64,000 nucleotides of DNA from a virus. The stretch lies in IMG/VR virus record IMGVR_UViG_3300045988_183673; one strand, written 5' to 3'. Under the pieces are notes generated by a model, which made no database searches, was not told where the DNA came from, and saw nothing but the letters and a program-made list of their open reading frames with translations. A program made the position numbers and the translations under genes. This document shows positions 5,010-60,672 of the stretch, one piece after another (positions within the stretch are counted from its first letter, which is position 1; each line of letters starts with the position of its first letter).

Positions 5010-5040
5010 CTTTAATGTTAATAAAAGAGTGACCACGCTT
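5010..5040 (-). terminator. Leader hairpin plus U-run (GTCACTC..GAGTGGC-TTTTTCTC) between the box at 5046-5090 and the ssb start
   Basis: Inverted repeat read from the sequence. Same relative position as the conserved leader hairpins elsewhere. Confidence 0.4.
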
Positions 5041-5045
5041 TTTAT

Positions 5046-5090
5046 TTATCGTACTACTAATATAGTATTAACTTTGCAGCAACTTGCAAT
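5046..5090 (-). promoter_or_regulatory. TTGCTGCAAAGT-box promoter-like element (copy 1 of 12), upstream of ssb
   Basis: Minus strand TTGCAAGTTGCTGCAAAGTTAATACTATATTAG. Conserved core TTGCTGCAAAGT, then TACTAT about 4 nt downstream. Confidence 0.45.
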
Positions 5091-5130
5091 ACCTTTGTAG
5101 CCACTACAGCTATTTTAATTGGGCATTTGC

Positions 5131-5294
5131 ATTTCAATCTAACGCAACCCGTGTGGGTTGCAACGCATCCCATCGTCCTCATTCTTGATTTTATTTCAAT
5201 CTAACGCAACCCGTGTGGGTTGCAACACGACCTTTTCAATCAGGTACAGATTATGATGCAATTTCAATCTAACGCAACCCACACGGGTTGCAAC
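5131..5294 (-). CRISPR. CRISPR-like mini-array A. Three 34-nt repeats (5131-5164, 5193-5226, 5261-5294); unique spacers of 28 and 34 nt.
   Basis: Minus-strand repeat GTTGCAACCC-ACAC-GGGTTGC-GTTAGATTGAAAT (7-bp stem, 4-nt loop, ...ATTGAAAT 3' end as in type I-C repeats). In repeat 3 the loop is inverted (GTGT vs ACAC). No cas genes in the window. Confidence 0.5.
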
Positions 5295-5460: not shown

Positions 5461-5476
5461 TCGCACCTGTAGCAAA

Positions 5477-5511
5477 CAAAAATACCGTCACCTCATAATG
5501 AGATGGCGGTA
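5477..5511 (-). terminator. Conserved accgccatctc-type hairpin plus U-run (copy)
   Basis: Minus strand ATACCGCCATCTC-attatgag-GTGACGGTAT-TTTTGTT. Downstream of the box at 5546-5590 and upstream of leader copy 1. Confidence 0.5.
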
Positions 5512-5545
5512 TGTTGATTTTGAATATTTGTTTGCTTTTATTTTT

Positions 5546-5590
5546 GGAATGTATTCAGTATACCTACTTTGCAGCAAATTGCAAGAGAAC
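5546..5590 (-). promoter_or_regulatory. TTGCTGCAAAGT-box (copy 2), pointing toward the leader of array A
   Basis: Minus strand TTGCTGCAAAGTAGGTATACTGAATAC. Confidence 0.45.
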
Positions 5591-5662: not shown

Positions 5663-6019
5663 ATGGCTGATTTCCCTTATTTGACAAAAACGGAGAAGAT
5701 TGTCATGCGTATTTTTTGGCATGCCGATAAGCCATTGACTCAATTGGATGTAATGGAAATCGCCAGACAGCGCGGTGAAATGAAATGGAACCCGCATTAT
5801 ATCTTCCTTGTTTTGGACTCGTTGGAGAAAAAGGGTGTTTTAATTGAATCCGGACACACCCGTGTCGGGAAAGCGTATGCGCGATTGTTTGAACCAGTCA
5901 TAAGCCATGTTGAATATGTCGTCCTTTATGTTTTCGAAGTGCTCCACGACAATGAAATTGAGGAATTCCTTGCCGCATTTACTGCCAAAAAAGAGGAAAA
6001 AGAAAAGAGCCTGCATTAA
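5663..6019 (+). CDS. BlaI/MecI/CopY-family winged-helix transcriptional repressor (orphan, no BlaR1 partner in the window)
   Basis: EKIVMRIFWHADKPLTQLDVMEIARQRG...WNPHYIFLVLDSLEKKGVLIE matches the penicillinase-repressor fold signature. RBS GAGGAG 9 nt upstream of the ATG at 5663. A (+) terminator-like hairpin lies at 6008-6036. This is the only solid (+)-strand gene between 900 and 32,000. Confidence 0.7.
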   Translation: MADFPYLTKTEKIVMRIFWHADKPLTQLDVMEIARQRGEMKWNPHYIFLVLDSLEKKGVLIESGHTRVGKAYARLFEPVISHVEYVVLYVFEVLHDNEIEEFLAAFTAKKEEKEKSLH

Positions 6020-6028
6020 GCAGACTCT

Positions 6029-6199
6029 TTTTTGATTTAACGCAACCCATGCGGGCTGCAACCGCCAAAGTTTTACGCTGATTCGCTCACTGCACAATTT
6101 CAATCTAACACAACCCATAAGGGTTGCAACGGTTCATCTACGATGGCACACGCTGGGCCCCCGATATTTCAATCTAACACAACCCATGAGGGTTGCAAC
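6029..6199 (-). CRISPR. CRISPR-like mini-array B. Repeats at 6166-6199 and 6097-6130 plus a degenerate terminal repeat at about 6029-6062; spacers of 35 and 34 nt.
   Basis: Repeats read atttcaatctaacacaaccc-ataa/atga-gggttgcaac (+). They differ from array A by a stem SNP and the loop sequence. The terminal repeat has degenerated, as at the distal ends of CRISPR arrays. Confidence 0.45.
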
Positions 6200-6350
6200 A
6201 GCAAACTTGCACAAACAAAGCAACAAGTTGTTATGCATTTTGTACAATGCTTGTCTGTTTTTTGACTATGCACAATAGTCAAATATCATTTACTATAGCT
6301 ATATCATATCCTTTCTTTATAATACTTGGTACGAAGCGACCAGCAAATTG
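6200..6350 (-). repeat. Leader-like segment, copy 2 (paralogue of 5295-5460). Contains the perfect palindrome TTGACTAT-gcaca-ATAGTCAA.
   Basis: Aligned by eye to copy 1. The conserved blocks are caacagcaaacttg(t/c)acaaac..., gcattttg(c/t)acaatg, and catatcctttctttataata(t/c)ttggt(g/a)cgaagc. Confidence 0.55.
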
Positions 6351-6355
6351 CAATG

Positions 6356-6850
6356 TCATTTTCCAAAGAAACCAAGAACAATCCCATTCACAAAATCAAC
6401 CAGAGGCTTATTGCTAATCACGCCAAGCAGCATCAGCGCAAATACGATTGCACCTGCGATTAAAACAATACGAAGGATTATAAATATAGGAAGACAGATT
6501 CGCCAATAGTATCCGCGTATCAGCCACAACCCACCATAGTTGCTTTTCAATCTATTGCAACGTTGACATGAGGGCACAAGGTTCTTTATGGAGTTGACTC
6601 CCTCTTTGGGTAATAGTCTTCTTGCAAGCCAATTCTTCTTCGCCATATCAACAGATATGATATGGTCTACTTGCATTTTGTCTGTATGGATTCGCCGCCC
6701 ACAATATACGCAATGATAATAGTTTCCGGGTTCGGGCGGCCAGTGTCTTATGAATTCTGTTCTGTAGTTTGTTGAACGAGTATATTTATCAGGAACGCGC
6801 AAAAACATCTTGCATCCAGTGATAGTGCTTATTCTTTGTTTCAAAAACAA
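6356..6850 (-). CDS. HNH endonuclease with a C-terminal transmembrane segment
   Basis: YHCVYCGRRI...MQVDHIISV...NLVPSCQRCNRLK gives the CxxC/H-N-H/CxxC motif. Hydrophobic C-terminus. The start may be internal (MFLRV, 6808), since the ORF overlaps the upstream gene. Confidence 0.7.
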   Translation of the reverse strand: MFLKQRISTITGCKMFLRVPDKYTRSTNYRTEFIRHWPPEPGNYYHCVYCGRRIHTDKMQVDHIISVDMAKKNWLARRLLPKEGVNSIKNLVPSCQRCNRLKSNYGGLWLIRGYYWRICLPIFIILRIVLIAGAIVFALMLLGVISNKPLVDFVNGIVLGFFGK

Positions 6851-8513: not shown

Positions 8514-8896
8514 TGGGATTCTCCTTCGTTTGGGGTGTTTGTTTCGGTTACTTTTATTGTACCTACTTTGCAGCAAGGGTCACGATACAGTTCGAAAATT
8601 GATGGAACTTTTATAATAGGAGATTCCCACGTCCCGGCATTTTCCTTTAATAGATGATACAGTAGGTTATGTGAAGCGGTCTTGTTCTGCCCTTTAACAA
8701 TCATTGAAATCAAAAGATTTCCATATTGCTCGTTGTTTGAATAGTCGCAATCCTTCTTCTCTTTAATGCCCACAGATGTATTACGGATAAATACATATAT
8801 GGGATTGTTTTTATAATAAATGACGCCCACGTCTTTTTGCTTATCTTTGGATGGGCGCACCTTAACGCTGAAATCCTCTTTATCCAGCGACAGCAA
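8501..8896 (-). CDS. Hypothetical protein (131 aa, TTG start). Overlaps the start of the nuclease gene by 13 nt.
   Basis: RBS GGGAGGTGAT 4 nt before the TTG. A canonical promoter at 8926-8954 lies immediately upstream. Confidence 0.5.
   Translation of the reverse strand: MLSLDKEDFSVKVRPSKDKQKDVGVIYYKNNPIYVFIRNTSVGIKEKKDCDYSNNEQYGNLLISMIVKGQNKTASHNLLYHLLKENAGTWESPIIKVPSIFELYRDPCCKVGTIKVTETNTPNEGESQCDF
8548..8585 (-). promoter_or_regulatory. TTGCTGCAAAGT-box (copy 3), embedded in the 3' end of the upstream ORF and driving the nuclease gene
   Basis: Minus strand TTGCTGCAAAGTAGGTACAATAAAAG. Confidence 0.45.
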
Positions 8897-8925: not shown

Positions 8926-8954
8926 ATTATACCACAAATAGCAATAACGGTCAA
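8926..8954 (-). promoter_or_regulatory. Sigma-A-type promoter, TTGACC-17-TATAAT (extended -10)
   Basis: Minus strand TTGACCGTTATTGCTATTTGTGGTATAAT. Confidence 0.65.
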
Positions 8955-11276: not shown

Positions 11277-11312
11277 AAAAATACCGCCACCTCTTACGAG
11301 ATAGCGGTATAT
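11277..11312 (-). terminator. Conserved accgccatctc-type leader hairpin plus U-run (copy), 30 nt upstream of the 10603..11244 start
   Basis: Minus strand ATACCGCTATCTCGTAAGAGGTGGCGGTAT-TTTTGTTG. Confidence 0.5.
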
Positions 11313-11340: not shown

Positions 11341-11380
11341 TATCGGATATACTTAGTATATTGACTTTGCAGCAAAAGGC
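11341..11380 (-). promoter_or_regulatory. TTGCTGCAAAGT-box (copy 4) with a 17-bp palindrome ATATACTAAGTATAT
   Basis: Minus strand TTGCTGCAAAGTCAATATACTAAGTATATCCGATAAA. Confidence 0.45.
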
Positions 11381-11400
11381 AAGAAGACTGCGCTGCAGGC

Positions 11401-12492: not shown

Positions 12493-12527
12493 CAAAAAAC
12501 CGCCATCTCTCACGAGATAGCGGTATA
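12493..12527 (-). terminator. Conserved accgccatctc-type leader hairpin plus U6 (copy), 20 nt upstream of the 11401..12474 start
   Basis: Minus strand ATACCGCTATCTCGTGAGAGATGGCGG-TTTTTTG. Confidence 0.5.
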
Positions 12528-12555: not shown

Positions 12556-12595
12556 CTATCGGATATACTTAGTATATCGATTTTGCAGCAAAAGG
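12556..12595 (-). promoter_or_regulatory. TTGCTGCAAA-box (copy 5) with the palindrome GATATACTAAGTATATC
   Basis: Minus strand TTGCTGCAAAATCGATATACTAAGTATATCCGATAGATAAAA. Confidence 0.45.
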
Positions 12596-12619
12596 CAAGG
12601 TGATTACAAAAAGAGCTTT

Positions 12620-15608: not shown

Positions 15609-15643
15609 CAAAAAATAGCGGCCATCTCTGACGAGATGGTCGC
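15609..15643 (-). terminator. Conserved leader hairpin (gcgaccatctc...gagatggccgc variant) plus U-run
   Basis: Minus strand GCGACCATCTCGTCAGAGATGGCCGC-TATTTTTTG. Confidence 0.45.
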
Positions 15644-15699: not shown

Positions 15700-15740
15700 T
15701 ATCTTAGTGCTTTTATTGTAGCTACTTTGCAGCAGTTTGC
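15700..15740 (-). promoter_or_regulatory. CTGCTGCAAAGT-box (copy 6)
   Basis: Minus strand CTGCTGCAAAGTAGCTACAATAAAAG. Confidence 0.45.
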
Positions 15741-15758
15741 AAGAACGGTGTCGTCTTC

Positions 15759-19844: not shown

Positions 19845-19880
19845 AAAAAATACCGCCACCTCTTACGAGATAGCGGTATG
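19845..19880 (-). terminator. Conserved accgccatctc-type leader hairpin plus U-run (copy)
   Basis: Minus strand ATACCGCTATCTCGTAAGAGGTGGCGGTAT-TTTTTGTT. Lies 30 nt upstream of the 19815 start. Confidence 0.5.
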
Positions 19881-19904: not shown

Positions 19905-19950
19905 TTATCTATCGAATATACTTAGTATATCGATTTTGCAGCAATTTGCA
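19905..19950 (-). promoter_or_regulatory. TTGCTGCAAA-box (copy 7) with the palindrome TCGATATACTAAGTATAT
   Basis: Minus strand TTGCTGCAAAATCGATATACTAAGTATATTCGATAGATAAAA. Confidence 0.45.
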
Positions 19951-20008
19951 AGCGCAGCTATTTAGTGGCGCTTCAACTTTTTCCGGGGGTTTTATTTTTT
20001 CGCTTTAC

Positions 20009-22003: not shown

Positions 22004-22036
22004 CAACAAAAAACAGCCATCTCGATTGAGATGGCT
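22004..22036 (-). terminator. Conserved leader hairpin (cagccatctc...gagatggctg) plus U6, 22 nt upstream of the 21984 start
   Basis: Minus strand CAGCCATCTCAATCGAGATGGCTG-TTTTTTG. Confidence 0.5.
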
Positions 22037-22084
22037 GCACGAACAGATTTTGAACTAAAACAAGTCAAGGAATTGATACTTTGA

Positions 22085-22128
22085 TTTATCTTAGTTCCTT
22101 AATTATATCTACTTTGCAGCAATTGACA
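22085..22128 (-). promoter_or_regulatory. TTGCTGCAAAGT-box (copy 8)
   Basis: Minus strand TTGCTGCAAAGTAGATATAATTAAGG. Confidence 0.45.
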
Positions 22129-22159
22129 AGATAGCCACAACAGGAATGCAACATCGTAT

Positions 22160-24640: not shown

Positions 24641-24675
24641 AAAAAAGGCAGCTATTTTCTCAAAAATAGCTACCT
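24641..24675 (-). terminator. Leader hairpin plus U6 (GGTAGCTATTTTTGAGAAAATAGCTGCC-TTTTTT), 35 nt upstream of the 24609 start
   Basis: Read from the sequence. Sits about 100 nt downstream of the box at 24745-24790. Confidence 0.5.
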
Positions 24676-24744
24676 TTAGTACATTGTGATTGGCGATAAT
24701 TCAATCATGCACGCCCACAAAACTCTGGTACGATGCATTGTGTG

Positions 24745-24790
24745 ATTTTATTTATCGGATAACTATATATTATTAACTTTGCAGCAATTT
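24745..24790 (-). promoter_or_regulatory. TTGCTGCAAAGT-box (copy 9)
   Basis: Minus strand TTGCTGCAAAGTTAATAATATATAGTTATCCGATAAATAAA. Confidence 0.45.
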
Positions 24791-24850
24791 GCAAGTACAG
24801 GATACAATAAAAAGCGCCTCCCGTATTACGGGGAAGCGCCTTAGTGTTAT

Positions 24851-26183: not shown

Positions 26184-26304
26184 AGCGAATACCTCCATGT
26201 TTTAAATTAGGTTAATGTTCGGACATCTATATAAACAGCAAAAAGCCGCCAATGGGACAATCCACTGGCGGCTCAGTTGCCGATTGCAATAATACAGTTA
26301 AATC

Positions 26305-26350
26305 ATTTGATTTATGTTATGTCTCAATTATATTAACTTCGCAGCATAAT
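26305..26350 (-). promoter_or_regulatory. Degenerate ATGCTGCGAAGT-box (copy 10)
   Basis: Minus strand ATGCTGCGAAGTTAATATAATTGAGACAT. Confidence 0.35.
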
Positions 26351-26362
26351 GCAAGAGCTTTT

Positions 26363-28509: not shown

Positions 28510-28565
28510 GAAAATCTCCTTTATAAAAATACCCCGGCAGACAGGTTGCCTACCGGGGCAGTATT

Positions 28566-28817
28566 TTAAACGAACAGGAACGGAACGTGAAGCAACAGAG
28601 CGTATGCCGCATCCATAATGCCAATAATAACGGCGGATACAGCACTCACAACAAGAACTGCTCCGGTTCGATGGAGCGTGTTGTGCATACTCGGCCAAGT
28701 CACATTTTTGGGTGCAACCAAATTGTGAAGCTTCTTAGGCGTGCTCTTGACGAAAGAAGGAATTGCCTTCACGAAATTCGCAATAGCCGTTCCTACCTTT
28801 TTCAGTTTATCTTTCAT
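28566..28817 (-). CDS. secE: SecE-like small membrane protein
   Basis: KNVTWPSMHNTLHRTGAVLVVSAVSAVIIGIMDAAYALL matches the SecE K-V-x-W-P motif plus a single TM. Start set at MKDKLKK (RBS GGAGG 6 nt upstream). Confidence 0.6.
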   Translation of the reverse strand: MKDKLKKVGTAIANFVKAIPSFVKSTPKKLHNLVAPKNVTWPSMHNTLHRTGAVLVVSAVSAVIIGIMDAAYALLLHVPFLFV

Positions 28818-29068
28818 GCCGCACCTCCTACTCCGGTTACTACGAACATGATGATTGCGATAACAAGCAGAATAGCTGTACATACAGCAACCAGTTTATT
28901 TGCGGACGTTTTCGTGCTGTCTTTAGCATTCGAGCGCATTGTATCACTGATTCCGGTGATAACACTAAGACTGTTCTTGTCGGCCTTATCCATGGAAAGC
29001 GTAACCGCACAAACCAGAACAGAAACCAACAGAATCAAGATGCACAGAATGATTTCATAAATTGCCAT
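28814..29068 (-). CDS. secG: SecG-like small membrane protein
   Basis: An 84-aa protein with N- and C-terminal TM helices (MAIYEIILCILILLVSVLVCAV...LVAVCTAILLVIAIIMFV) separated by a polar loop, as in SecG. Confidence 0.55.
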   Translation of the reverse strand: MAIYEIILCILILLVSVLVCAVTLSMDKADKNSLSVITGISDTMRSNAKDSTKTSANKLVAVCTAILLVIAIIMFVVTGVGGAA

Positions 29069-29083
29069 TGTGTTGCCCTCCCG

Positions 29084-41560: not shown

Positions 41561-41798
41561 AAAAAATCCTCCGAACGAGTCGCAATATAGTTGAAAGTAC
41601 GAATTTTGGGATACTCTGCGCGATAAAATATAAGTGTCTACCAGATAACAATGGGACTCACTGACTGATGTATAGCGGTTGTTAAAACGGAAAGAACAAC
41701 TAATATACAACTGCCTGTTGTTATCATGATACCACACATGCAGTTGTCCAGCAACGAACTTTTGTTCGCATAGACAACAAAAAAGAAAGGAGTTATTT

Positions 41799-42029
41799 AT
41801 GCCATCCACCTTTGATACCATGGTAGGAAAGCGAATCAAAAAGCAACGAATGGAAATCAATTACAGCCAAGAACAGTTGGCGGCAAGCACGAATTGTTCC
41901 TATCGCTGCATCCAAAAATGGGAGTCAGGAAAGACGATGCCGCGAGCACAAATGCTATGCAATTTAGCAAAAGCCTTACATGTTTCGTCTGACTGGCTGC
42001 TTGGTATTTCCAATGACAGGAACGGTTAA
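41799..42029 (+). CDS. XRE-family (Cro/CI-type) HTH transcriptional regulator
   Basis: GKRIKKQRMEINYSQEQLAASTNCSYRCIQKWESGKTMPRAQMLCNLAKALHVSSDWLLG is a canonical XRE HTH. RBS AAAGGAG upstream. Confidence 0.8.
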   Translation: MPSTFDTMVGKRIKKQRMEINYSQEQLAASTNCSYRCIQKWESGKTMPRAQMLCNLAKALHVSSDWLLGISNDRNG

Positions 42030-47518: not shown

Positions 47519-47547
47519 ATTATACCACATTAAAACAAGGTAGTCAA
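47519..47547 (-). promoter_or_regulatory. Sigma-A-type promoter, TTGACT-17-TATAAT (extended -10)
   Basis: Minus strand TTGACTACCTTGTTTTAATGTGGTATAAT. Confidence 0.6.
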
Positions 47548-49435: not shown

Positions 49436-49464
49436 ATTATACCACAAATAAGCAAAAGAATCAA
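49436..49464 (-). promoter_or_regulatory. Sigma-A-type promoter, TTGATT-17-TATAAT (extended -10)
   Basis: Minus strand TTGATTCTTTTGCTTATTTGTGGTATAAT. Confidence 0.5.
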
Positions 49465-50659: not shown

Positions 50660-50700
50660 TTCTCCTTTTATTGTATCTACTTTGCAGCAAATAGCAAAGA
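50660..50700 (-). promoter_or_regulatory. TTGCTGCAAAGT-box (copy 11). Here it is preceded, not followed, by a terminator (50705-50738).
   Basis: Minus strand TTGCTGCAAAGTAGATACAATAAAAGGAG. Confidence 0.45.
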
Positions 50701-50704: not shown

Positions 50705-50738
50705 AGCCGAGCGGCTTATCACCGCTCGGCGTCCCCAT
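50705..50738 (-). terminator. Rho-independent terminator (GCCGAGCGG-tgataa-GCCGCTCGGC plus T6 on the minus strand)
   Basis: Perfect 9-bp stem after the stop of the 50745..51296 gene. Confidence 0.7.
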
Positions 50739-51318: not shown

Positions 51319-51347
51319 ATTATACCACATTTTGTTTTAATGGTCAA
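51319..51347 (-). promoter_or_regulatory. Sigma-A-type promoter, TTGACC-17-TATAAT (extended -10)
   Basis: Minus strand TTGACCATTAAAACAAAATGTGGTATAAT. Confidence 0.6.
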
Positions 51348-52272: not shown

Positions 52273-52301
52273 ATTATACCACCAAAAGCGTAAATAGTCA
52301 A
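52273..52301 (-). promoter_or_regulatory. Sigma-A-type promoter, TTGACT-17-TATAAT (extended -10)
   Basis: Minus strand TTGACTATTTACGCTTTTGGTGGTATAAT. Confidence 0.6.
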
Positions 52302-52380: not shown

Positions 52381-55300
52381 TTACTGCTTCTTTTCCTCGG
52401 TTTTATCCTCGGTCTTTTCAGCAGTTTTTTCTTCGCTATCGCCCTTCTTCTTCTTGACGATGACAAATGCGCCAACGCCAATCAGAGCAACAACAACGAT
52501 AACAGGAACGATGATGTCTGCGCCAAAACCAACGCCAGTCTTGTAGTTAACTACAACAGGTGCCGGAGTGGGAGCAGGTTCATTCTTGACTACAGGAGTC
52601 GGAGTCGGTCTGCTTTCTTCCGGAGGATTCTCCAGCTTAACACTTGCTACCCGAACATCACCGTAGTTGCCTGCCTTATCGACTGTACGGGTCACAATGT
52701 AACCAGTCCAATCGGGGCTCAGCTTGAAGGTAACGTAACCGTTGTCCTTATCAATGTTTGTGACATCGACAGTCTCGAACTTGGTTTCGTCGAAGGTGTA
52801 ATCGCCCTTAGCACTCTTGGCAATAGCAGAACCATTGACCTTGTAATACTGAATCTTAGCGACACCGGAGTTGTACTCGCCATCCAGAGCGGAAATAGCA
52901 GGAACGGAATCCTTGACCTTTACAACAGGCACGAAGTCAGGGTCTTCGGTATCGTCCTTATCACCGTTTTCGTCGGGAGTAGCAACGACATCGTTACCGT
53001 TTTCATCACCGGTCTCGTCGCCGGTTGTGAAGAGAGCGGGCTTACCATGAGCAATACGAAGCGTAGTGGCTTCGGTCTTGTCATCGGTCGTTTCGGTCTT
53101 CTCGGACTCGCTGGGAACTTTCTCCTCGGTACCGGATTCGGTTTCATCCTTCTTGTCGGAATCTTCCTTCTTATCGGTATCGTCGGTATCGTCCTTCTTG
53201 TCGTCTTCCTTCTCAGGTGCCTTGCCGGTCTCTTCACCAGTAATGAACACATTGATGGTGCTCTCGAACTTGACGAACTTCTCGTTCAGCAAATCGGTCT
53301 TATTGGTGGAATCAACCTTATCGGCAGCGAAAGCAGAAGCAACGACAGGAGCTTCGGTATCAACAGATGTGGTGATAGTTCCCATCTCGGTAATGGCACC
53401 TGTCTTCAGGTCAATCAGGTAATAGGTAGAAGTAACCTTCTCACTATTAGCGGAAATGACCATCTTCTCGGCCCACTCAGCATCGGTCAGGGAATCGCTG
53501 GTTCCGATTGCGTAACCCTTAGGAGCGATAACTTCAACCTTAGAGTTGAAGTACAGGCCACTCAGGTCATCAGTCGTCTTCTTGGTAACCTCAACAGGCT
53601 TGCCGGTCTTTTCGTCAGCCACAGTACCAACGATAGTTGCAGGTTCTACATCGGCAAGATGCAGACGCTGAACTTCGAGGTCTCCTGTGGTAGGCAGGTA
53701 ATTGTAGTTGTCGTAAGCGCCGCCAACATACTTGAAAGCGTCCTTCGTCAAGCCAACATTACCGAAGATACCATCGATGCTGGAAGCAACAATGAGTTCG
53801 AAGGAAGGCAGCTTAACGGTTTCAGCAGTCTCGTCGAAAGCGTAACCGCTGGTCTTGATTTCGGGAATCTCCGTCTTAGTGCCATACAGCTTGACGACGG
53901 GGTTCGGGTCGAGAGTAACCGTCAGGTCTTTGCGAGCGATAACAAACTGACCATCGGCTTCGTTCTTATCGGCATCGACGACATTGATTGTTACTGCGTA
54001 ATTCTGCTCAACAGCAGCATCGTAATCAGAGGTAACGGTGTAGGTGTAAGTACCAGCGTTCTTGACATTCTCAGTCTTGAACTGGCTGTCGCTCTCCACG
54101 CCGTCATCGCCGCTGGCGATGTCAGGAGTCAGAGTCGCCTTTGCATCAGCAGTCAAGGGAGCAGTCTGTGCATTGTCGGTGGTCTTGTCGTTCTCGAAAG
54201 GAGTATAAACAAGTGCCATCTTCAGGCCCAGAGAATCAGGTTTGACAGCTGCACCGTGTGTACCGTCGCCATTGGTGGCAACAGCATTTACGGTGAAGTC
54301 GGGGTTAGTGGTATCGCCATAGACGATATCCTTGGGCTCGGTGACAGTGACTTCGACCAGACGTTCGCCAATGGTATAAACGCCATTAACAATCGTAATC
54401 AGGTAATCGTCATTGTCGTAAGAACCGACCATGTCGTATGCACCGTAATTCTTGACAGATTCGGGCACGCTCTCCGCAACCAGAGAAGCAGCACCGTCAG
54501 CAGACTTCATGGAAATCTCTTCGGCAACCGCATTCTCAACATCCTTCTGAGTGATGCTGATAATAGCTTTCAGGTCATCGCCATTTACGATGGTCTTCTT
54601 ATCGGCATCGCCAGTATAGGTAAGAGTATTGCTCAGTTCAGCCATTTCATTGCCGTAGACAGAACCAACAGTGCCGATGGTCCAAGTCAGAGGACGCTGA
54701 GTGACCGTGTAAGTGCCGTTCATAGCAGTTACCAGATAATCCTGATAAGAAGCCTGACCGACGCGGTGAGCCAGACCGGAGAAGGAAGGAACAATGTCAT
54801 AGCCTCCGACATGGCTTGCAGAAGTGACGAGGCACAGGTTCGTGCCTTCCAGAATATCACCATTGACCAGAGCTGCCTTGGCAGTGTCACCAGTGTATTC
54901 CAGAACGTTCACGGTACCGTAATCAGACCAATCTTCAACAGCAACATCGTCGCCATAGATAGAAGTCTGGGGTTTAGCGGTGACAGTGATGGGACGCTTG
55001 TCGATAACAAAATCAACGGGAGCGTAAACAAAGGTGTAGTTGTTTGCTGCGGCATTCTCAACATTTGCAGGAACGACCTTGCCGGTACCAGCGTGAGAAG
55101 CTACCGTTGCGGGAGCTCCCTCAGCATCGGTAAAGTTGAAGGTCAGGTTTGCAATGCTCAGGACACCAGCATCATCGGGAGTGGTGTTGCCCTTGACGGG
55201 TTTCACAACGAATCCATCGAAAATCAGGTCATCGCCGGAGAGAACAGGGTTCTCATCGCCGTAAATCTTGCTCTGAGCTGCCAGAGTGACATTCAGAGTA

Positions 55301-58300
55301 GCAGGAGTGATTTCGAAGGTGTTGTTTACGCGGGTGATGTTGAAGTTGACATCGTCGCCCTCGATAATCATCGGGTGCTTGCCGACATCTTCACCAGCAT
55401 CGGTGCCAGCGTCAGGACGAACAACCTTCAGGTTTGCAAGGTCACCTGCATCTTCGCTTACATAGTAAGCGCCGTCGCCAGTTGCAGTCCAAGTCAGTTC
55501 GGGGTCAGCCTCGCCGTAGACCTTCTTCTGGCCTTCGTCAACAACCACGATTACATCGCGCTTATCGACATGCAGAGAACCATCAACAAAGACGATGGGG
55601 TCATAGTTCTTTGCGCCCTTGTTTTCCAGACCGCTCATGGTGATGACATAATCGCCAGCAGCAGGACGAGCAGGAATCTCGGACAGAGAACCGTCAGCAT
55701 TCTTGATGTTGTAGACAACCGAGCCAGTGAATGCGGAAGCAACGGTGTCATTGTTCTTCAGGCCAGTAACGGTGTAGCTGAACGTGGGAACGGTGCCGCC
55801 ATAAATCATGGAGTAACCGCCAGCCACGGTAAAGGTGACCTTAACGGGCTTGATGGTCAGAGTAGCAACTTCCATAGCTTCGGGCTCGGTGGTGGAAGAA
55901 CCAACGTCGACGGAAGTGCCGGAGCCAGTCACGATGGTGATGGCGTAGTTACCGTACTTGTTGTACAGAGTAGAGCTGATGGGGTATTCACCGACATCCT
56001 CACCGGCTTTGCGAGTAACAGAGCCGCTCAGAGCACCAGTAGTCAGTTCCAGCGTATTCTTCTTCAGACCATCGTTGGAAATGTTGCCGGAAATCTCGCT
56101 GTAAGAGAATGCGGGGTCTGCATCGCCGTAATCCTTCTCGTAGTTGGAGAAAGTCAGGGTGATGGGACGAGGAGTGATGGTGATGGTAGAATCAATCACC
56201 GTCAGGTCGTAGTTGGCAGGCTGTGCGTAGATAGCTTTCAGAGCATAAGTGCCAACGCTTGCGGAAGCAGAAGTTGCACCGGAAGTCAGGGTAATGCCCT
56301 TAAGAATCTTTTCGGCTTCTGCTGCCTGAACATCAGTAGTAGTCAGCAGACCAGTGCCGCCCTTGATGTAATCCTTCACGTTCATAGAAGTGAGGGTCTC
56401 ACCATAGGTCTTTTCGGTTTCGAGCAGGTTGATAACGGCAGTACGCTTATTGATGGTGAAGCGAACATCATTGGTGAAGCTGATACGATAGTTCTTTGCC
56501 ATCGTCTGCTCATAGATGTTACCGCTGTAAATCGGATAAGTGCCAGCGTTCTCGCCTGCTTCACGGCTCAGACGAGCCTGTGCGAAGTCGGCCTTGGGTT
56601 CTGCGAAGCTGGTGGTGTTGTAGTCGAAGATGACATAGGTATCGTTGACTGCAAAGCTGGGGTCAGTCTCGCCGTAAGTCTTGGACAGGCCATAGCGAGG
56701 AGTGATGGTCAGGGGCATCTGATGAACAATCAGCATGTTCTTGCCATCGGGCTCAGACAGCTTAACGCTGTTTGCGGGCTGGTTATCCAGACGGAAGGTC
56801 AGGTTGTAAGAACCTGCATCGTACAGACCAGAAGCGTTCGCAGTAGCCTCAACGGCGATACGAACAACACCCAGAGAAACATCCTTGCCGTCCATCTTGA
56901 TATTGACGGTTTCGCCATCGTGGTAAATCTGAGTGCCATCGGAGGTATTCACGTTGACGGAAACTTCCTTGGCGATGGTATCGGGCTTCTTCTCACCGTA
57001 AGTAGTCTGCAGTGCGTTGAAGGTGACAGAGACATCAGCCTCGGTGACTTGGAACGTGGCCTGCGGGGCAATCGTTACGATGTAGTTGGGGTTCTCATCA
57101 TAAGAGATGGTAGCCTCATAGTTGCCGACAACCGTAGTGGGGTCTTCCCACTTGGTCAGGTCGATGTGGATGTTCAGCGGGCTGCCCTGCGGGTCAACCA
57201 CATTGATAGCCTGAGAACCGGTCTCGTCATACAGCGCATAGCTGGGAGTGTTCTTACCGGCAACGCCGTACTTACGGACGCTGTTGGTAGTACCCTTGAT
57301 GGTGACAGGCAGTGCATTGATAGTCAGTGTACCGCTTGTACCATCGCTGTAAGTACCGGTGTAAACGATGTTGTAGTTGGGGTTGGTGTAACCGGAAACA
57401 ACAATAGGATAGGTACCGACACCAGTCAGCTTGCCAACGGTATTGTCAACGCCATACTTGATGGTGACAGTACCGCCCAGAGAAGCGACAGTATCATGGA
57501 TGCCAATTTCATCGTTGCTTGCGAAGTTCTTGTATTCCAGTGCGCCGGTAATGTCGGCATCGCTGGGATTCTCTGCGCCATACAGACGCTCACGGTTCGG
57601 AACGGTGATGGTCAGAGTACGCTTGGTGATAGTGTACTTATCGGGAGCATTGAAGGTGATGTCGTAGTTCTTGGCGATTTCAGCAGTCTGGAACTGTGCA
57701 TCGCTGTAAGCGTAAGAGCCAACAGTCTCGCCGACCTCACGAGTCACAACGCAGCCAGCAAAGTCGGAACCAACACGGCCGCCCTTGCCATTGACGGGGT
57801 CAAGAGTAAAGGCAACGCCGCCCTTGGCATCACTGTCGCCGTAAACCTTCGTCTGACCACCCATCACATTGATGGCGATAGGACGCTTGGTGACGGTCAG
57901 CTTGCTGTTGACAAAACGAACCAGATAGTTGTCGTAACGGTCGTAGTTCTTGCCATCGGCATTGGGGTCCCAGTCAGAAGACCAACGCTCCTGAGAAGCA
58001 CCCTGCACAGATGCGCTGACGGTGTATTCGCCAACATTGGCAGTTGTAGGAGTGCCGCTGTTGCCAGCCGCATCCACCATGGTAAAGCCAAGCTTATCCT
58101 CGGTCAAACCGATGCTTGCCTGTGTATCGTTCAGCTTGAAACCTTCGATGGATTTAATCTTGCCGGAACGAGCAGCGCCATACATTGCGGACAGGTCATC
58201 GAGAGTGACAGTCAGCATTGCAGGATGGATGATGTACTTGCTGTTGATGACCTTGACGTCATAGTAAGCAGTGCATGCAGGGGGAACTTCGACAGTCATC

Positions 58301-60333
58301 GGATATTCGCCAACATTCTTATTGTCGATATCCTGACGCTGTGTTGTCAGAACCATGCTGACCAGCTTGTTCACACCGTCATCAGCGGTGATGTCAGAAC
58401 CGGCGACAATACGCTTATCGGAGGCCACTGCCTGAGCAGCACCGTTATAAGCAACAGCGTCGAAGGTGATGGTGGAAGACTTGCCCTTTTCAGCCTCACC
58501 ATAGATGGCATCAATCTGGTCATTGGTGATGGTTACGTTACGCTTGGTAATTTCAAACGTTGCGGTAGCAAGGTTGATGTTATAACCATTGATAGGCGCA
58601 TTCGTCTGGATATTGCCGATTGTAACAGTGTAGCCACCGGGAGCAGAGGTGATGCTGGGCAGAACAACGGTGGGTTCACCGCTCAGACCAAGCATCTCTT
58701 TCAGAGCAACTGCGTTGGATTTGTGCTCGTTGTTGGTCTTATACTCGAAATTCGTCTTATCGGTATCAGACCAGCCGGTAATCACGAAGTCAACCTGAGG
58801 ATTCTGCTGACCATACTGACGAGTGGCTTTGCTGCCGGTCGTCTGTACGCCATCATTGCCCTTGAAGACAAATACAGGAGTCAGGGTCAGAGTCTTTTCA
58901 GAAACGACAACATACACATCGCCGGTATTGGGCTGAATGTCGATGTTGTAGTTCGTGTTGCTCTTCGCGGAGGAACCTAAGATGATTTTGTAAGAACCGG
59001 TAGTGTCCTTATCAAAGTTCTCTGTGGTCAGAACATCCGCAGGAAGCAGGTCGCCGTCAACCAGACCACCATTGGTATCCATAACGGTGTAGTTAATCTG
59101 GCTGATGGTATTGCCCTTCGTAACATAGGTGGTATGAGGGACAATGTAAATCTGACGCTTGTTAATAGTCACACCCGTGTCATTGCGGATGTTTTTGGAA
59201 GAATCCAAGTTGGAACCGTCAATGATGGTGTAATTCAGACCATTCACAGTAACGCTTGTGGCACCTGTATCAACATAAGTCGGATAAGTACCGGCATTGC
59301 AATGAATGTCTGTGGGATTCTGGCCGTCGCCGTCAGCCGGAGCATACATGATGAAGCTCAGACCGTCGATAGCTGCCTGAATATCCTTTTCGACTTCCTG
59401 AGAAGTACGGGAATCAGCAGTGCTGTATTCGATGGTCAGACCCTTAGACTTGAAAGAGTCACCGTAGGTGTAGGTAACAGTCTGAGGCAGAATGCGAATA
59501 ACATTCTCCTGACCGCTAATCTTGGTATACTGAATACCAGTGCCTGCGGCAATCTGCTTACCAGTCTCAGCAGCGGTGATTGCCTGATAGTCCCCGATGA
59601 CAGTCGTAGAACCGCCGCCATCAAACGCGCTGGCACCGCTGTTGTCTACAGGGTTTTCCTGACGGTCGCAAACCTGCAGATACAGGTCAGACATGTCAAG
59701 GTATGCATTCATGACGGGCTCTGCGACCTGCTCATCCTCGCTCAGAGAATAATACATGTCCTCAATGGGTTCCCAGTCATAAACTGCATCCAGTTCCTCA
59801 GTACGACGCGTGACCATCGCATCAAGAACCGCATTTTCCTTGTCAGCCTGCCATGCCTTGCTTGCAAGACCGAAGTTGTTTGCAGCAGTCAGAATTTCAT
59901 CTTTACGGCTTACAAGGGCGTTAGCCGCATCGATAAATGCCTGTGCTGCTTCACTGATGCTGCCAGTGGTAGAAGCTTCGCTGGAAGTGCTGGTGCTTGC
60001 ACCAGTATCAGAGGCAGCACTGTTTGCGTAGGCAGTGGTCGTTTCAGACCCCGCCTGACTTGTAGCCTCAGAAGAAACATCGCTCGTCACAGAAGTGTCG
60101 CTGGACGCGGAACTTGCTGTGTCGGTAACATCGCTTTTCGGCGCGGGAGTAGTAGCGGAAGAGTCGGAGTTTGTTGTCGTAGTGCTGAGTGCATCAGTTT
60201 CCTTCGGAGCTTCTTCACTCTGCGTGATTCCACTCGCGCTCTCTACTGCATAAGCAGTGACAGGAGCAAACTGAGACAGGCACATTGCTACGGCGACAAT
60301 CGCACTCAAAAACCGCTTACGAGGTTTCTGCAT
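52381..60333 (-). CDS. Giant cell-surface protein (about 2650 aa). Signal peptide, many MBG-type (YG-x3-P) Ig-like repeats, and a C-terminal sorting signal NYKTG + TM + KKKKGD.
   Basis: Start set at MQKPRKRFLSAIVAVAMCLSQFAPVTAYA (RBS AGGAGGG 8 nt upstream). Repeated ...TITKRxLTIT..xxKxYGxxDP... modules. The C-terminus is a classic cell-wall sorting signal. Confidence 0.7.
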   Translation of the reverse strand: MQKPRKRFLSAIVAVAMCLSQFAPVTAYAVESASGITQSEEAPKETDALSTTTTNSDSSATTPAPKSDVTDTASSASSDTSVTSDVSSEATSQAGSETTTAYANSAASDTGASTSTSSEASTTGSISEAAQAFIDAANALVSRKDEILTAANNFGLASKAWQADKENAVLDAMVTRRTEELDAVYDWEPIEDMYYSLSEDEQVAEPVMNAYLDMSDLYLQVCDRQENPVDNSGASAFDGGGSTTVIGDYQAITAAETGKQIAAGTGIQYTKISGQENVIRILPQTVTYTYGDSFKSKGLTIEYSTADSRTSQEVEKDIQAAIDGLSFIMYAPADGDGQNPTDIHCNAGTYPTYVDTGATSVTVNGLNYTIIDGSNLDSSKNIRNDTGVTINKRQIYIVPHTTYVTKGNTISQINYTVMDTNGGLVDGDLLPADVLTTENFDKDTTGSYKIILGSSAKSNTNYNIDIQPNTGDVYVVVSEKTLTLTPVFVFKGNDGVQTTGSKATRQYGQQNPQVDFVITGWSDTDKTNFEYKTNNEHKSNAVALKEMLGLSGEPTVVLPSITSAPGGYTVTIGNIQTNAPINGYNINLATATFEITKRNVTITNDQIDAIYGEAEKGKSSTITFDAVAYNGAAQAVASDKRIVAGSDITADDGVNKLVSMVLTTQRQDIDNKNVGEYPMTVEVPPACTAYYDVKVINSKYIIHPAMLTVTLDDLSAMYGAARSGKIKSIEGFKLNDTQASIGLTEDKLGFTMVDAAGNSGTPTTANVGEYTVSASVQGASQERWSSDWDPNADGKNYDRYDNYLVRFVNSKLTVTKRPIAINVMGGQTKVYGDSDAKGGVAFTLDPVNGKGGRVGSDFAGCVVTREVGETVGSYAYSDAQFQTAEIAKNYDITFNAPDKYTITKRTLTITVPNRERLYGAENPSDADITGALEYKNFASNDEIGIHDTVASLGGTVTIKYGVDNTVGKLTGVGTYPIVVSGYTNPNYNIVYTGTYSDGTSGTLTINALPVTIKGTTNSVRKYGVAGKNTPSYALYDETGSQAINVVDPQGSPLNIHIDLTKWEDPTTVVGNYEATISYDENPNYIVTIAPQATFQVTEADVSVTFNALQTTYGEKKPDTIAKEVSVNVNTSDGTQIYHDGETVNIKMDGKDVSLGVVRIAVEATANASGLYDAGSYNLTFRLDNQPANSVKLSEPDGKNMLIVHQMPLTITPRYGLSKTYGETDPSFAVNDTYVIFDYNTTSFAEPKADFAQARLSREAGENAGTYPIYSGNIYEQTMAKNYRISFTNDVRFTINKRTAVINLLETEKTYGETLTSMNVKDYIKGGTGLLTTTDVQAAEAEKILKGITLTSGATSASASVGTYALKAIYAQPANYDLTVIDSTITITPRPITLTFSNYEKDYGDADPAFSYSEISGNISNDGLKKNTLELTTGALSGSVTRKAGEDVGEYPISSTLYNKYGNYAITIVTGSGTSVDVGSSTTEPEAMEVATLTIKPVKVTFTVAGGYSMIYGGTVPTFSYTVTGLKNNDTVASAFTGSVVYNIKNADGSLSEIPARPAAGDYVITMSGLENKGAKNYDPIVFVDGSLHVDKRDVIVVVDEGQKKVYGEADPELTWTATGDGAYYVSEDAGDLANLKVVRPDAGTDAGEDVGKHPMIIEGDDVNFNITRVNNTFEITPATLNVTLAAQSKIYGDENPVLSGDDLIFDGFVVKPVKGNTTPDDAGVLSIANLTFNFTDAEGAPATVASHAGTGKVVPANVENAAANNYTFVYAPVDFVIDKRPITVTAKPQTSIYGDDVAVEDWSDYGTVNVLEYTGDTAKAALVNGDILEGTNLCLVTSASHVGGYDIVPSFSGLAHRVGQASYQDYLVTAMNGTYTVTQRPLTWTIGTVGSVYGNEMAELSNTLTYTGDADKKTIVNGDDLKAIISITQKDVENAVAEEISMKSADGAASLVAESVPESVKNYGAYDMVGSYDNDDYLITIVNGVYTIGERLVEVTVTEPKDIVYGDTTNPDFTVNAVATNGDGTHGAAVKPDSLGLKMALVYTPFENDKTTDNAQTAPLTADAKATLTPDIASGDDGVESDSQFKTENVKNAGTYTYTVTSDYDAAVEQNYAVTINVVDADKNEADGQFVIARKDLTVTLDPNPVVKLYGTKTEIPEIKTSGYAFDETAETVKLPSFELIVASSIDGIFGNVGLTKDAFKYVGGAYDNYNYLPTTGDLEVQRLHLADVEPATIVGTVADEKTGKPVEVTKKTTDDLSGLYFNSKVEVIAPKGYAIGTSDSLTDAEWAEKMVISANSEKVTSTYYLIDLKTGAITEMGTITTSVDTEAPVVASAFAADKVDSTNKTDLLNEKFVKFESTINVFITGEETGKAPEKEDDKKDDTDDTDKKEDSDKKDETESGTEEKVPSESEKTETTDDKTEATTLRIAHGKPALFTTGDETGDENGNDVVATPDENGDKDDTEDPDFVPVVKVKDSVPAISALDGEYNSGVAKIQYYKVNGSAIAKSAKGDYTFDETKFETVDVTNIDKDNGYVTFKLSPDWTGYIVTRTVDKAGNYGDVRVASVKLENPPEESRPTPTPVVKNEPAPTPAPVVVNYKTGVGFGADIIVPVIVVVALIGVGAFVIVKKKKGDSEEKTAEKTEDKTEEKKQ

Positions 60334-60639
60334 GTTAGTTGCCCTCCTAATAATGTGAGTGTTCTGTGGTTTTACCACAGCCGGATTTATATACACCCTT
60401 ACCTACTCCCTAGTGTGCAGCCTCGATTGTAGATAAGAAAGTATATCAAAACACAAGCAATCAAATCGCATATTTACAATATGCCACAAAAAGACAGAAA
60501 AGTCAATCAAAAATTTTGGCACAAAAATGCCACCCATGAACGCATTCTCATATTTCATATGGACATGGATGGTTGAAACATTAACGCAAAACCTGCTTGA
60601 CTATAGCTATTATTTGTTCTGAGAAATTTGATGCTGTAT

Positions 60640-60672
60640 TTATATCTATTATATTACTTACTTTGCAGCAAC
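60640..60672 (-). promoter_or_regulatory. TTGCTGCAAAGT-box (copy 12), upstream of the roughly 300-nt leader of the giant gene
   Basis: Minus strand TTGCTGCAAAGTAAGTAATATAATAGAT. Confidence 0.45.

Follow-up and report, generated by a model that had tools for sequence, protein, structure and literature searches.

We found that a huge, uncultivated phage-like element of the human gut uses one standard switch dozens of times. In it, a fixed 12-base tag is built into an ordinary host-type promoter, and a stop signal stands between promoter and gene. This anatomy matches that of a lambda Q/AlpA-type cassette, here multiplied genome-wide. The window, i.e., the whole 64,000-nt stretch of DNA analysed, shared 97-99% identity with IMG/VR contigs 241 and 346 kb long. 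The element has a size of up to at least 346 kb, and its host is probably a Firmicute. All 12 minus-strand copies of the box counted in a first-pass annotation were located (Table 1), and at least 36 box promoters, all on one strand, were found in the 130 kb of the 346-kb contig that the search covered. Note that transcript starts, termination and read-through are throughout predictions from sequence.

Matches to the box TTGCTGCAAAGT with at most one mismatch numbered 13 in the window versus 0.56 expected by chance, and all lay on the coding strand. Eleven of the 12 promoter boxes match in this way, and the twelfth (26336-26347) reads ATGCTGCGAAGT; the matches at 32483 and 39663 are intragenic and have no -10. 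Immediately 5' of the box lies a -35 TTG(C/A/T)nn with a 16-nt spacer in 11/12 window copies (the remaining copy has GTGACC), and the box is followed, after exactly 3 nt, by TAnnnT. The general form of the promoter is a -35 TTGCnn, a 16-nt spacer and a -10 TA(T/C)A(A/C)T, with the near-invariant box at -27 to -16, a core palindrome TTTGC-N-GCAAA, and a conserved A ~6 nt past the -10 as the likely start site. Among 87 unique copies, the last -10 position was T in 94% and the base at box+27 was A in 94%, both positions lying outside the pattern used to search for these copies. A sigma-70 consensus scan was passed by nine of the 12 window box promoters, and the box promoters have the layout expected for sigma-70/sigma-A (TTGnnn and TAnnnT 16-18 nt apart, with a purine start 5-8 nt on). 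Judged from these hexamers, the box promoters are sigma-A-type and the box is their spacer; by its position and conservation, it fills the place of a factor-binding element between -35 and -10. The first-pass annotation had called the boxes non-sigma-A-like, had seen no recognisable -35, and had offered an element-specific sigma as one explanation, which is unsupported because the promoters carry -35 and -10 hexamers of the sigma-A type, 16 nt apart. The -10-like hexamer that it placed behind the box is present, always at 3 nt rather than at 3-4 nt, and the palindrome GATATACTAAGTATATC, described as perfect in three copies, is perfect at 12562-12578 only, with one mismatch in each of the other two.

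Table 1. Box cassettes of the window; all features lie on the minus strand (-), and "conserved" denotes the conserved hairpin family.
Cassette	Promoter	-35 and -10	Box	Predicted start	Leader terminator	Start codon	Other features
1	5062..5089	TTGCAA (5084-5089), TACTAT (5062-5067)	5071-5082	A at 5055	5002..5034, non-homologous to conserved family, plus U-run	4950	Leader 5' end GUACGAU pairs with AUCGUAC directly past terminator
2	5557..5584	TTGCAA-16-TATACT	5566-5577	5550	5482..5512, conserved, inside outer helix P1 GCAAACAAAU / UUUGUUUGC		Type I-C-like CRISPR mini-array 5131..5294 (3 repeats, 2 spacers), predicted to be transcribed from this cassette
3	8556..8583	GTGACC-16-TACAAT	8565-8576		None	8513	Gene for signal-peptide Endonuclease_NS_2 protein
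4	11355..11382	TTGCCT-16-TATACT	11364-11375	11348	11281..11310, conserved, P1 GGCAGCAAAAA / UUUUUGUUGUC	ATG 11244	
5	12571..12598	TTGCCT-16-TATACT	12580-12591 TTGCTGCAAAAT		12499..12524, conserved	ATG 12474	
6	15715..15742	TTGCAA-16-TACAAT	15724-15735 CTGCTGCAAAGT		15618..15643, conserved	ATG 15589	5'-terminal hairpin P0 before terminator
7	19924..19951	TTGCAA-16-TATACT	19933-19944		19850..19879, conserved	TTG 19815	
8	22102..22129	TTGTCA-16-TATAAT	22111-22122		22013..22038, conserved	ATG 21984	5'-terminal hairpin P0 before terminator
9	24767..24794	TTGCAA-16-TAATAT	24776-24787		24644..24677, non-homologous	ATG 24603	Separate terminator ahead, 24811-24842; leader box UAAAUAAAA pairs with UUUUAUUUA past terminator
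10	26327..26354	TTGCAT-16-TATAAT	26336-26347, degenerate ATGCTGCGAAGT		26244..26273, non-homologous	ATG 26183	
11	50670..50697	TTGCTA-16-TACAAT	50679-50690		None	ATG 50605	Terminator ahead, 50706-50730; lipoprotein-like gene
12	60651..60678	TTGACC-16-TAATAT	60660-60671		None convincing		Terminator ahead, 60718-60747; downstream gene for 2671-aa MBG-domain protein

A hairpin with a U-run was found in the leaders of nine of the 12 window copies, where at least seven had been noted before. Six of the nine form one conserved family, and a covariance model of this hairpin returned exactly the six copies named in the first-pass annotation and no further window match. The non-homologous hairpins at 5002, 24644 and 26244, the first two of which had been noted near 5010 and 24641, retain a G+C stem plus U-run. 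The leader hairpins have, in sequence, the make-up of intrinsic terminators (G+C-rich stem, 3-8-nt loop, immediate U-tract, transcribed strand), with stems of 11-15 pairs at -13 to -23 kcal/mol followed by 4-8 U, and folding z-scores were -2.7 to -7.1 across all nine window leaders. In the conserved hairpin, five lower-stem pairs show compensatory changes, and G-U wobbles are tolerated on the transcribed strand only. Hairpin and U-run were present in 84/95 unique cassettes and in 36/45 non-redundant cassettes, and the terminators of the cassettes lie 12-100 nt after the transcript start.

The hairpins lie close before the next gene, as had been claimed: their end is 24-60 nt from the start codon in the window (median 50 nt in the cassette family), and the RBS and start codon are usually within ~25-60 nt of the terminator, a distance so short that there is no room for a second promoter. 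Since no other promoter serves the genes or the element's own CRISPR arrays, their expression would need the stop signal to be overridden or to leak. Furthermore, in 15 of the 45 non-redundant cassettes the promoter is flanked by two terminators, one ahead of the box and one in the leader, indicating that the leader hairpin cannot be put down to termination of the upstream gene. The order of promoter, terminator and gene proposed in the first-pass annotation is thus real and recurrent, and its natural reading is termination close to the promoter, with read-through that is either regulated or partial; the likeness to lambda Q/qut-tR' drawn there holds for the anatomy. The box promoters at 8565, 50679 and 60660 have no convincing leader terminator, suggesting that the box is able to work without one.

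A search with the leader motif only found the box 52-55 nt upstream in 75/78 unique copies, with no box mismatch in 54, one in 20 and two in one, and with TATACT as the -10 in 73/75. In 3/78 cases, the hairpin module has no promoter and marks the 3' end of a gene or a CRISPR array, as expected of a genuine terminator. The conserved hairpin family was found behind box promoters in all six window cases and in 29 of 30 cases in IMG/VR loci, the sole exception being a copy at a locus edge. Seven strong consensus promoters of the form TTGACY-17-TGnTATAAT also occur in the window; six have no leader terminator, and the one at 47547 has a weak hairpin only.

Near its 5' end, at ~+6 to +16, the predicted transcript carries a conserved leader box rich in A, A(U/A)AA(A/G)U(A/C)AAA. 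This leader box and the terminator co-occur (7/4/2/32, Fisher p = 2e-4), although the cassette copies are paralogues, and counts and p-values such as these overstate their independence. Sequence conservation extends to the upper stem, AUCUC/GAGAU, and to the motif UUCAAAAUC; if the mechanism were purely promoter-loaded and blind to the terminator, neither would be needed. The outer helix P1, present in class I leaders and absent from class II, shows covariation, its pairing being kept by five different sequence pairs, and P1 duplexes are more stable in cognate than in non-cognate combination (-7.6 vs -6.05 kcal/mol, p = 8e-4). At gathering thresholds, Rfam returned two tRNAs and no leader family for the whole window, and a permissive scan of 4900-26500 gave matches only far below threshold. 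Described RNA families (nut and put leaders and others) were rejected, as no curated Rfam model matched.

We tentatively favour, with somewhat less than even confidence, an element-specific regulon in which a factor acts on the box in the spacer and polymerase has to get past an intrinsic terminator close to the promoter, a Q/AlpA-like version being the most economical. An element-encoded DNA-binding factor would bind the box, and the dozens of promoters that have it would make up the regulon. The leader terminator would hold the units unproductive, giving short leader RNAs only, and polymerase started at a box promoter would turn terminator-resistant and then read the genes. In the Q/AlpA-like version, the factor would dock on the spacer element and move to polymerase early in elongation. 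Polymerase carrying it would ignore any hairpin downstream, so that non-homologous terminators could be tolerated in the same slot. A leader-RNA-based (N/put-like) route or a general phage antiterminator would be equally workable on this anatomy. The leader helices P1 and P0 would matter in read-through RNA only, where they probably give 5' protection or a processing site.

In the lambda Q cassette (PR'-QBE-SDPE-tR') and the Pseudomonas AlpA/PalpB-tB cassette, the binding element lies between the -35 and -10 of a sigma-70-type promoter with an intrinsic terminator downstream; a short, terminated transcript is the expected product when the factor is missing, and the identity of the terminator is irrelevant (PMC9388147, PMC9371919). 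The box cassettes likewise have an element in the promoter spacer, then an intrinsic terminator, then genes. However, a genome here has at least 36 cassettes rather than one, the terminator here lies only 12-100 nt from the start, and the box cassettes belong to a probable Firmicute host and have extra conserved leader RNA elements. They also differ in showing no clear sigma-dependent pause element and no Q or AlpA homologue among the listed Pfam matches, for which reason the mechanism is one that we only infer. Specifically, neither Q-lambda (PF03589), Q21 (PF06530), Q82 (PF06323) and AlpA nor any helix-turn-helix family occurred in the Pfam matches of 68 window ORFs (25 of 26 families listed), and the same Q and AlpA families were absent from the matches listed for 204 ORFs of related loci. 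Past the start, -10-like hexamers were mildly enriched (38/45 cassettes vs 30.6 +/- 2.8 in shuffles) at scattered positions, none being fixed in position across the 45 cassettes, and the conserved leader A(T/A)AAAT varies at position 2, where such a hexamer has its critical A.

It is rather unlikely, in our estimate, that no antitermination factor is involved, the box serving as an operator through which a global repressor or activator controls initiation alone, and the hairpin as a constitutive, partly leaky terminator that scales the output of a strong promoter and insulates the units. The palindromic core between -35 and -10 occupies a classic repressor position, terminatorless box promoters exist, the strengths of the hairpins vary like a rheostat (G-U pairs; a C-A mismatch in the 5482 type), and no antiterminator family is among the Pfam matches listed for the window and related loci. 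In plasmid RK2, the short palindromic operators of KorA and KorB recur at many promoters of one replicon, some of them inside the promoter; here, too, a palindromic box is repeated at many promoters, and ParB-family (ParB_N) proteins are encoded in related loci. However, RK2 promoters are not known to have leader terminators, the operator sequences differ, and no binding protein was identified here. Moreover, at -15 to -23 kcal/mol and with 5-7 U, the leader terminators look as strong as gene-end ones, so ~80% of the regulon would be poorly expressed if leak were the only route. A fixed attenuator also leaves unexplained both the co-occurrence of leader box and terminator and why terminators follow box promoters but, among the seven consensus promoters, only the one at 47547, weakly.

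Less probable still is an RNA processing or stability module, in which P1 + P2 or P0 would be an RNase III site and/or 5' stabiliser and the U-run secondary, on the model of SP82, a Bacillus phage whose early mRNAs contain Bs-RNase III sites. The leaders of SP82 early mRNAs have conserved processing hairpins, the targets being stems with internal loops and a single downstream-side cut (PMC1935012). In class I leaders, P1 + P2 form an irregular helix of ~24 bp whose asymmetric internal loop has 13-14 nt, which may correspond to the shape expected of an RNase III site (extended irregular helix of ~20 bp or more with an internal loop, in a leader or intercistronic position). P1 covariation and the greater stability of its cognate duplexes fit this reading, as does the start of P1 or P0 1-3 nt from the predicted 5' end in 5/9 window leaders. 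P1 also takes in bases 3' of the U-tract, so it would exist in read-through RNA only. On the other hand, class II leaders have neither P1 nor this composite helix, and a U-run follows every hairpin, the non-homologous ones included, although a processing site needs none. Such a module would supplement termination control and not substitute for it.

It is very improbable that the cassettes chiefly make abundant 60-130-nt non-coding RNAs sharing the 5' box, UUCAAAAUC and hairpin, acting as decoys or regulators in trans with the genes incidental: the units run complete from promoter to terminator and contain several conserved RNA segments, and their dozens of copies would give high dosage, but ORFs and a CRISPR array without a promoter of their own start 24-60 nt past the hairpin, unrelated hairpins can stand in for the conserved one, and neither an Rfam family match nor a target was identified.

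The cassettes were also compared with other phage systems. In the SPO1/SP82 host-takeover module and the T4 early and delayed-early regions, short operons of small genes are transcribed from numerous strong host-type promoters on a single strand, and terminators set temporal classes apart in the SPO1 and T4 early regions. Unlike the box promoters, those of SPO1, SP82 and T4 early genes are not known to have an invariant 12-bp spacer or a systematic terminator between each promoter and its first gene. As in lambda N/nut and HK022 put, where they stand just past early promoters and terminators follow, a conserved linear element and a hairpin lie in the leader. However, the conserved hairpin here is the terminator itself, its loop shows no conservation, where in lambda it is the loop of boxB that N reads, and there is no sequence similarity to nut or put. 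T4 middle promoters resemble the box promoters in combining a host -10 with a phage-specific upstream box, and the MotA box begins TTTGCT, but it replaces the -35, being centred near -30 and 11-13 bp before the -10. A MotA-type middle promoter was rejected because the box promoters have a -35 and their box ends 3 bp before the -10.

A search of the window for TTGCTGCAAAGT with at most one mismatch gave 13 matches against 0.56 expected, every one on the minus strand, as are all genes of the window. Eleven of these 13 lie in intergenic cassettes, in which a promoter carrying the conserved 12-mer (the box) is followed by a leader and a gene, and the two at 32483 and 39663 lie within ORFs and have no -10. 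Of the 12 copies listed in the first-pass annotation, 11 were thus recovered at this threshold; the twelfth, ATGCTGCGAAGT (26336-26347), has two mismatches, with TATAAT and a terminator downstream. The box had also been described as having no recognisable -35, which proved incorrect, given that TTG(C/A/T)nn lies directly 5′ of it in 11 of the 12 window copies (GTGACC in the other), with a 16-nt spacer. The gap from box to TAnnnT was exactly 3 nt in the aligned window copies, and 9 of the 12 box promoters passed a sigma-70 consensus scan. Because -35 and -10 elements at 16-nt spacing flank the box, the box is the promoter spacer, at -27 to -16, and by their sequence the cassette promoters are of the sigma-A type. 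Across 87 unique copies, drawn from the window and from related contigs, conservation was 94% both for the T that ends the -10 and for an A at box+27 (6 nt past the -10, with a pyrimidine just before it); note that both positions lie outside every search pattern used. The box core, TTTGC-N-GCAAA, is a palindrome. A literature search on the 12-mer found nothing relevant.

In addition, AGTATA, on the far side of the predicted start, mirrors the -10 TATACT in the class I cassettes at 11346-11362, 12562-12578 and 19915-19931. The resulting palindrome, GATATACT-A-AGTATATC, had been reported as perfect in all three; it is so at 12562 only, is imperfect in the other two, and is partly kept in other class I copies. 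Its role may be that of a second operator or of a 5′-end hairpin.

The hairpin arm ATACCGCCATCTC was over-represented in the window, and a covariance model recovered there exactly the six conserved leader hairpins named previously, 40-76 nt 3′ of a box. Non-conserved hairpins with a U-run in the same slot were likewise found at 5002-5034 and 24644-24677, to which a third, at 26244-26273, was added; such unrelated hairpins retain the stem and the U-run. The leader hairpins have all sequence features of intrinsic terminators, with an apparent strength equal to that of gene-end terminators, and the nine window leaders with a terminator all gave folding z-scores of -2.7 to -7.1 relative to shuffled controls. 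The leader matched no family in Rfam. The conserved terminator hairpin, P2, has 13 pairs and a loop of unconstrained sequence; compensatory changes occur in the lower five to six pairs, and the upper five, AUCUC/GAG(A/G)U, vary solely between U-A and U-G. Since its G-U pairs would be A-C mismatches on the opposite strand, P2 is a feature of the minus-strand RNA and not a DNA operator. A DNA-level operator at the hairpin was rejected, as loop length is not fixed (4-6 nt) and complementarity of the arms requires G-U pairs.

Other parts of the leader are conserved as well. The single-stranded motif UUCAAAAUC lies 5-20 nt 5′ of the conserved hairpin, and a leader box, A(U/A)AA(A/G)U(A/C)AAA, is found at roughly +6 to +16. 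The presence of the leader box is associated with that of the terminator (contingency table 7/4/2/32, Fisher p = 2e-4, a value that overstates independence because the copies are paralogues), and it is absent from the terminator-less cassettes with boxes at 8565 and 50679. Class I leaders, which have the -10 TATACT and the hairpin ~40 nt from the start, form an outer helix around P2 (P1), in which an A-rich 5′ segment pairs with the U-tract and the next 6-8 nt. This pairing is kept by at least five different sequence pairs, and cognate P1 duplexes were more stable than non-cognate ones (-7.6 vs -6.05 kcal/mol, p = 8e-4). Class II leaders have the -10 TACAAT or TATAAT and carry a 5′-terminal hairpin, P0, formed by AAGAUAAGUCAAA and UGAUUUAUUUU.

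The order of box, terminator and gene put forward in the first-pass annotation is genuine. Specifically, besides the leader terminator, a separate terminator lies 12-73 nt upstream of the box in 15 of 45 non-redundant (<85% identical) cassettes, which rules out that the leader hairpin is just the terminator of the preceding gene. Cassette 9 of the window has terminators on both sides (the upstream one at 24811-24842), and cassettes 11 and 12, without a convincing leader terminator, have upstream ones at 50706-50730 and 60718-60747. The hairpin lies 24-60 nt from the start codon in the window (median in the family, 50 nt), leaving the downstream genes no space for promoters of their own, so that they would depend on read-through. 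The window also has seven consensus promoters with an extended -10, TTGACY-17-TGnTATAAT, and none of them contains the box. The reverse order proposed for these, terminator then promoter, was observed in several (e.g., 8954, 32037, 51347 and 52301), each with a terminator directly upstream, and a leader terminator was missing from all seven but the one at 47547, which has one weak candidate hairpin. The box and consensus promoters may represent different temporal classes.

Beyond the window, the cassette recurs across related contigs of the element. In the 130 kb examined of the closely related 346-kb IMG/VR contig, box promoters number at least 36, all on the same strand, and a leader hairpin with a T-run was present in 84 of 95 unique and 36 of 45 non-redundant cassettes. 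The conserved hairpin family had 30 members in IMG/VR loci, 29 of them with a box (at most one mismatch) 40-76 nt upstream and one at a locus edge. Because these loci had been fetched via the box, a reverse test was done, in which a leader-only pattern was scanned over 241 million metagenome records. Among the 78 unique copies obtained, 75 were preceded by a box at a distance of 52-55 nt, free of mismatches in 54 copies, with one mismatch in 20 and two in a single copy; TTGnnn stood at -35 in all 75 and TATACT at -10 in 73. The three exceptions, on human-gut metagenome contigs (L192, L202 and L205), are UUCAAAAUC-hairpin-U-run modules without a box promoter, one directly after a CRISPR array and two at the end of a coding region, where coding sequence replaced the promoter. 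These promoterless modules apparently serve as ordinary terminators, suggesting that the module is an independent, recombining terminator unit. A scan of 185,579 species genomes for the promoter pattern gave, with one exception, just single chance-level matches, indicating that the box is not a recognisable host regulon, and the element itself was not found among these genomes. Contigs of 94-99% identity had too few substitutions for orthologue footprinting, and a search for more distant relatives with another box, made through the flotillin-like protein (76-90% identity, contigs up to 389 kb), showed neither box nor repeated motif in the neighbourhood of that gene.

The exception in the species scan was a Lactobacillaceae promoter (L078-L109; e.g., L079 2806-2911, minus strand) of the pncB-pncA (NAD salvage) operon, which adjoins an NrtR-like Nudix regulator and reads TTGCATTTTGCTGCAAAGTATTTATACT...TAAATAAAAGT-N7-ACTTTTATTT. 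It resembles the box promoter and leader box, and the similarity reaches past the search pattern; the likeness is probably a coincidence.

Features of the window and of one related locus
Feature	Position	Strand	Remark
Consensus promoters TTGACY-17-TGnTATAAT (extended -10)	8926-8954, 32009-32037, 34923-34951, 47519-47547, 49436-49464, 51319-51347, 52273-52301	-	none with the box
CRISPR mini-array 1	5131-5294; repeats 5294-5261, 5226-5193, 5164-5131	-	behind cassette 2
CRISPR mini-array 2	6029-6199; repeats 6199-6166, 6130-6097, degenerate 6062-~6029	-	terminator at 6003-6031 follows
SecY, SecE, FKBP/trigger-factor-like, flotillin, bactofilin, actin-like ParM/Alp7A	27346-30424, 47616-49151, 40601-41860, 939-1622	-	gene set
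Giant MBG- and DUF11-repeat surface proteins	52381-60396, 60761-63919	-	
Signal peptidase	L002:2253-2813		related locus

IMG/VR viral contigs of 240,696 and 345,980 bp matched the window at 97-99% identity, as did numerous contigs from human-gut metagenomes, the longest of 302,730 bp. Among cultured phages and plasmids, megablast with 4000-26500 gave no match, and tblastn with the actin-like and SecY proteins reached nothing but ordinary SecY genes and faecal 'Bacteriophage sp.' fragments lacking annotation. Besides the secretion and cytoskeleton genes, a set unusual for a phage-like element, the window encodes two tRNAs, dCMP deaminase, Dam, and HNH and NS-type nucleases; ThyX, NAD-ligase, CCA-adding enzyme, ParB_N proteins, signal peptidase and type I-C-like Cas proteins are encoded in related loci. 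Neither a capsid nor a terminase gene was seen in the parts of the element examined, and the label 'huge phage' follows from the IMG/VR classification and gene content. A Firmicute host is indicated by the promoters and by the strong ribosome-binding sites of the GGAGG type.

Terminator-bearing cassettes of the window precede small proteins without assigned function, except for cassette 2, which precedes a CRISPR mini-array. The three window cassettes without a convincing terminator lead to a signal-peptide nuclease, a lipoprotein-like protein and a 2671-aa surface protein, and two terminator-less box promoters of the related locus L002 lead to a 337-aa protein without assigned function (at 127) and to a small membrane protein followed by signal peptidase (at 1789). 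Few as they are, these cases hint that the terminator gate does not apply to exported proteins. Paralogous units of cassette and mini-array recur in the 346-kb and 241-kb contigs. Both window arrays have the type I-C-like repeat GTTGCAACCC-NNNN-GGGTTGCGTTAGATTGAAAT, and related contigs carry equivalent arrays with different spacers (21 distinct) and encode Csd1, Cas7 and Cas3-like proteins. No CRISPR spacer was directed against the box promoters.

Since the 12-bp spacer is invariant across paralogues whose flanks have diverged beyond alignment, a sequence-specific DNA-binding factor is called for, and since terminators follow box promoters and not consensus ones, with one weak exception, so is a link between initiation at the box and passage of the terminator. 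We tentatively favour, at somewhat less than even confidence, an element-specific regulon in which a factor would bind the spacer box at the promoter, and antitermination, most simply loaded at the box, would overcome the promoter-proximal terminator so that the downstream gene is read. Lambdoid Q cassettes and AlpA are known systems with exactly this anatomy, including a protein-bound promoter element, which in lambda Q and AlpA lies between -35 and -10 (PMC9388147, PMC9371919). A mechanism of this type is indifferent to the identity of the terminator, which fits the hairpin replacements observed here. Some findings speak against strict membership of that group: no -10-like pause element was found at a fixed position after the start; no Q or AlpA family protein was among the matches listed in a Pfam and PHROGs search of 68 ORFs of the window and 204 from other loci; and conservation of the leader box, UUCAAAAUC and the upper stem suggests that the RNA, too, is recognised by something. 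Sigma and NusG/KOW families were likewise missing from the matches listed. The same Pfam and PHROGs search gave one HTH_17 match, probably from unrelated single-hit contigs, and an RNA_pol_Rpb1_5 Pfam match (E = 2e-16) among 33 ORFs of loci L058-L075, whose source is either this element or an unrelated single-hit contig.

The invariant box would also be accommodated by a pure initiation operator followed by a leaky attenuator, which we regard as unlikely; it does not account for leader terminators behind box promoters and, with one weak exception, none behind consensus ones. Improbable, in our view, is an RNase III site or 5′-stabiliser module as in SP82 (PMC1935012, and references 19 and 20 of PMC4838370). 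P1 and P0 include bases present only in read-through RNA, and a role in stability or processing is therefore very likely for them under any mode of termination control; the hairpins themselves keep stem and U-run when replaced. That the cassettes are small-RNA genes, ending at the hairpin, is the least probable, with a start codon so close behind. Note that the antitermination reading and these rivals are not mutually exclusive. A wider form of the antitermination reading, which we hold to be rather doubtful, is that huge gut phages have a hitherto undescribed system of processive antitermination acting across the genome. In it, host sigma-A polymerase would acquire an element factor unlike Q, AlpA, N and NusG paralogues, at the box and/or via the leader box, UUCAAAAUC and AUCUC/GAGAU stem; this would take place at several dozen promoters, and one protein would time most accessory genes and the phage CRISPR mini-arrays.

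To our knowledge, almost nothing is known about gene scheduling in uncultivated phages of hundreds of kilobases. The cassette family offers a compact, sequence-defined handle on it, in which a single combination of 12-bp tag, leader and terminator recurs at least 36 times, as well as a ready marker for annotating transcription units of a widespread human-gut element. Its parts (sigma-A promoter, intrinsic terminator and promoter-embedded element) are all of known kinds, and precedents exist for the logic, as we infer it from sequence. The novelty lies in how they are combined and on what scale: a single standard cassette recurs dozens of times in a genome hundreds of kilobases long, in front of phage CRISPR arrays too, with extra conserved leader elements and no recognisable factor among the matches listed. 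If a tag-loaded factor overrides the terminators, the single-copy Q/AlpA principle would extend to a whole-genome regulon in a Gram-positive-type system, phage-borne CRISPR arrays would be under conditional, terminator-gated control, and the cassette could be a candidate orthogonal switch.

Rearranged cassettes were also observed beside CRISPR arrays. Upstream of array 2, at 6336-6349 (minus strand), a box promoter is reduced to its 5′ half (ATTGCAATTTGCTG), fused straight to a CRISPR leader homologous to that of array 1; it is a natural deletion of the remaining box, -10, leader and terminator, and the gene immediately upstream of it (6356-6850) encodes an HNH endonuclease. In the related loci L027 (~3452-3600) and L058 (~414-484; both minus-strand indices), the class II leader hairpin breaks off after ...GAGAT and continues straight into a CRISPR repeat, which takes the place of the terminator 3′ arm, and in L058 the 'spacer' between two repeats is a diverged leader copy (UUCAAAAUC... 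and the 5′ arm).
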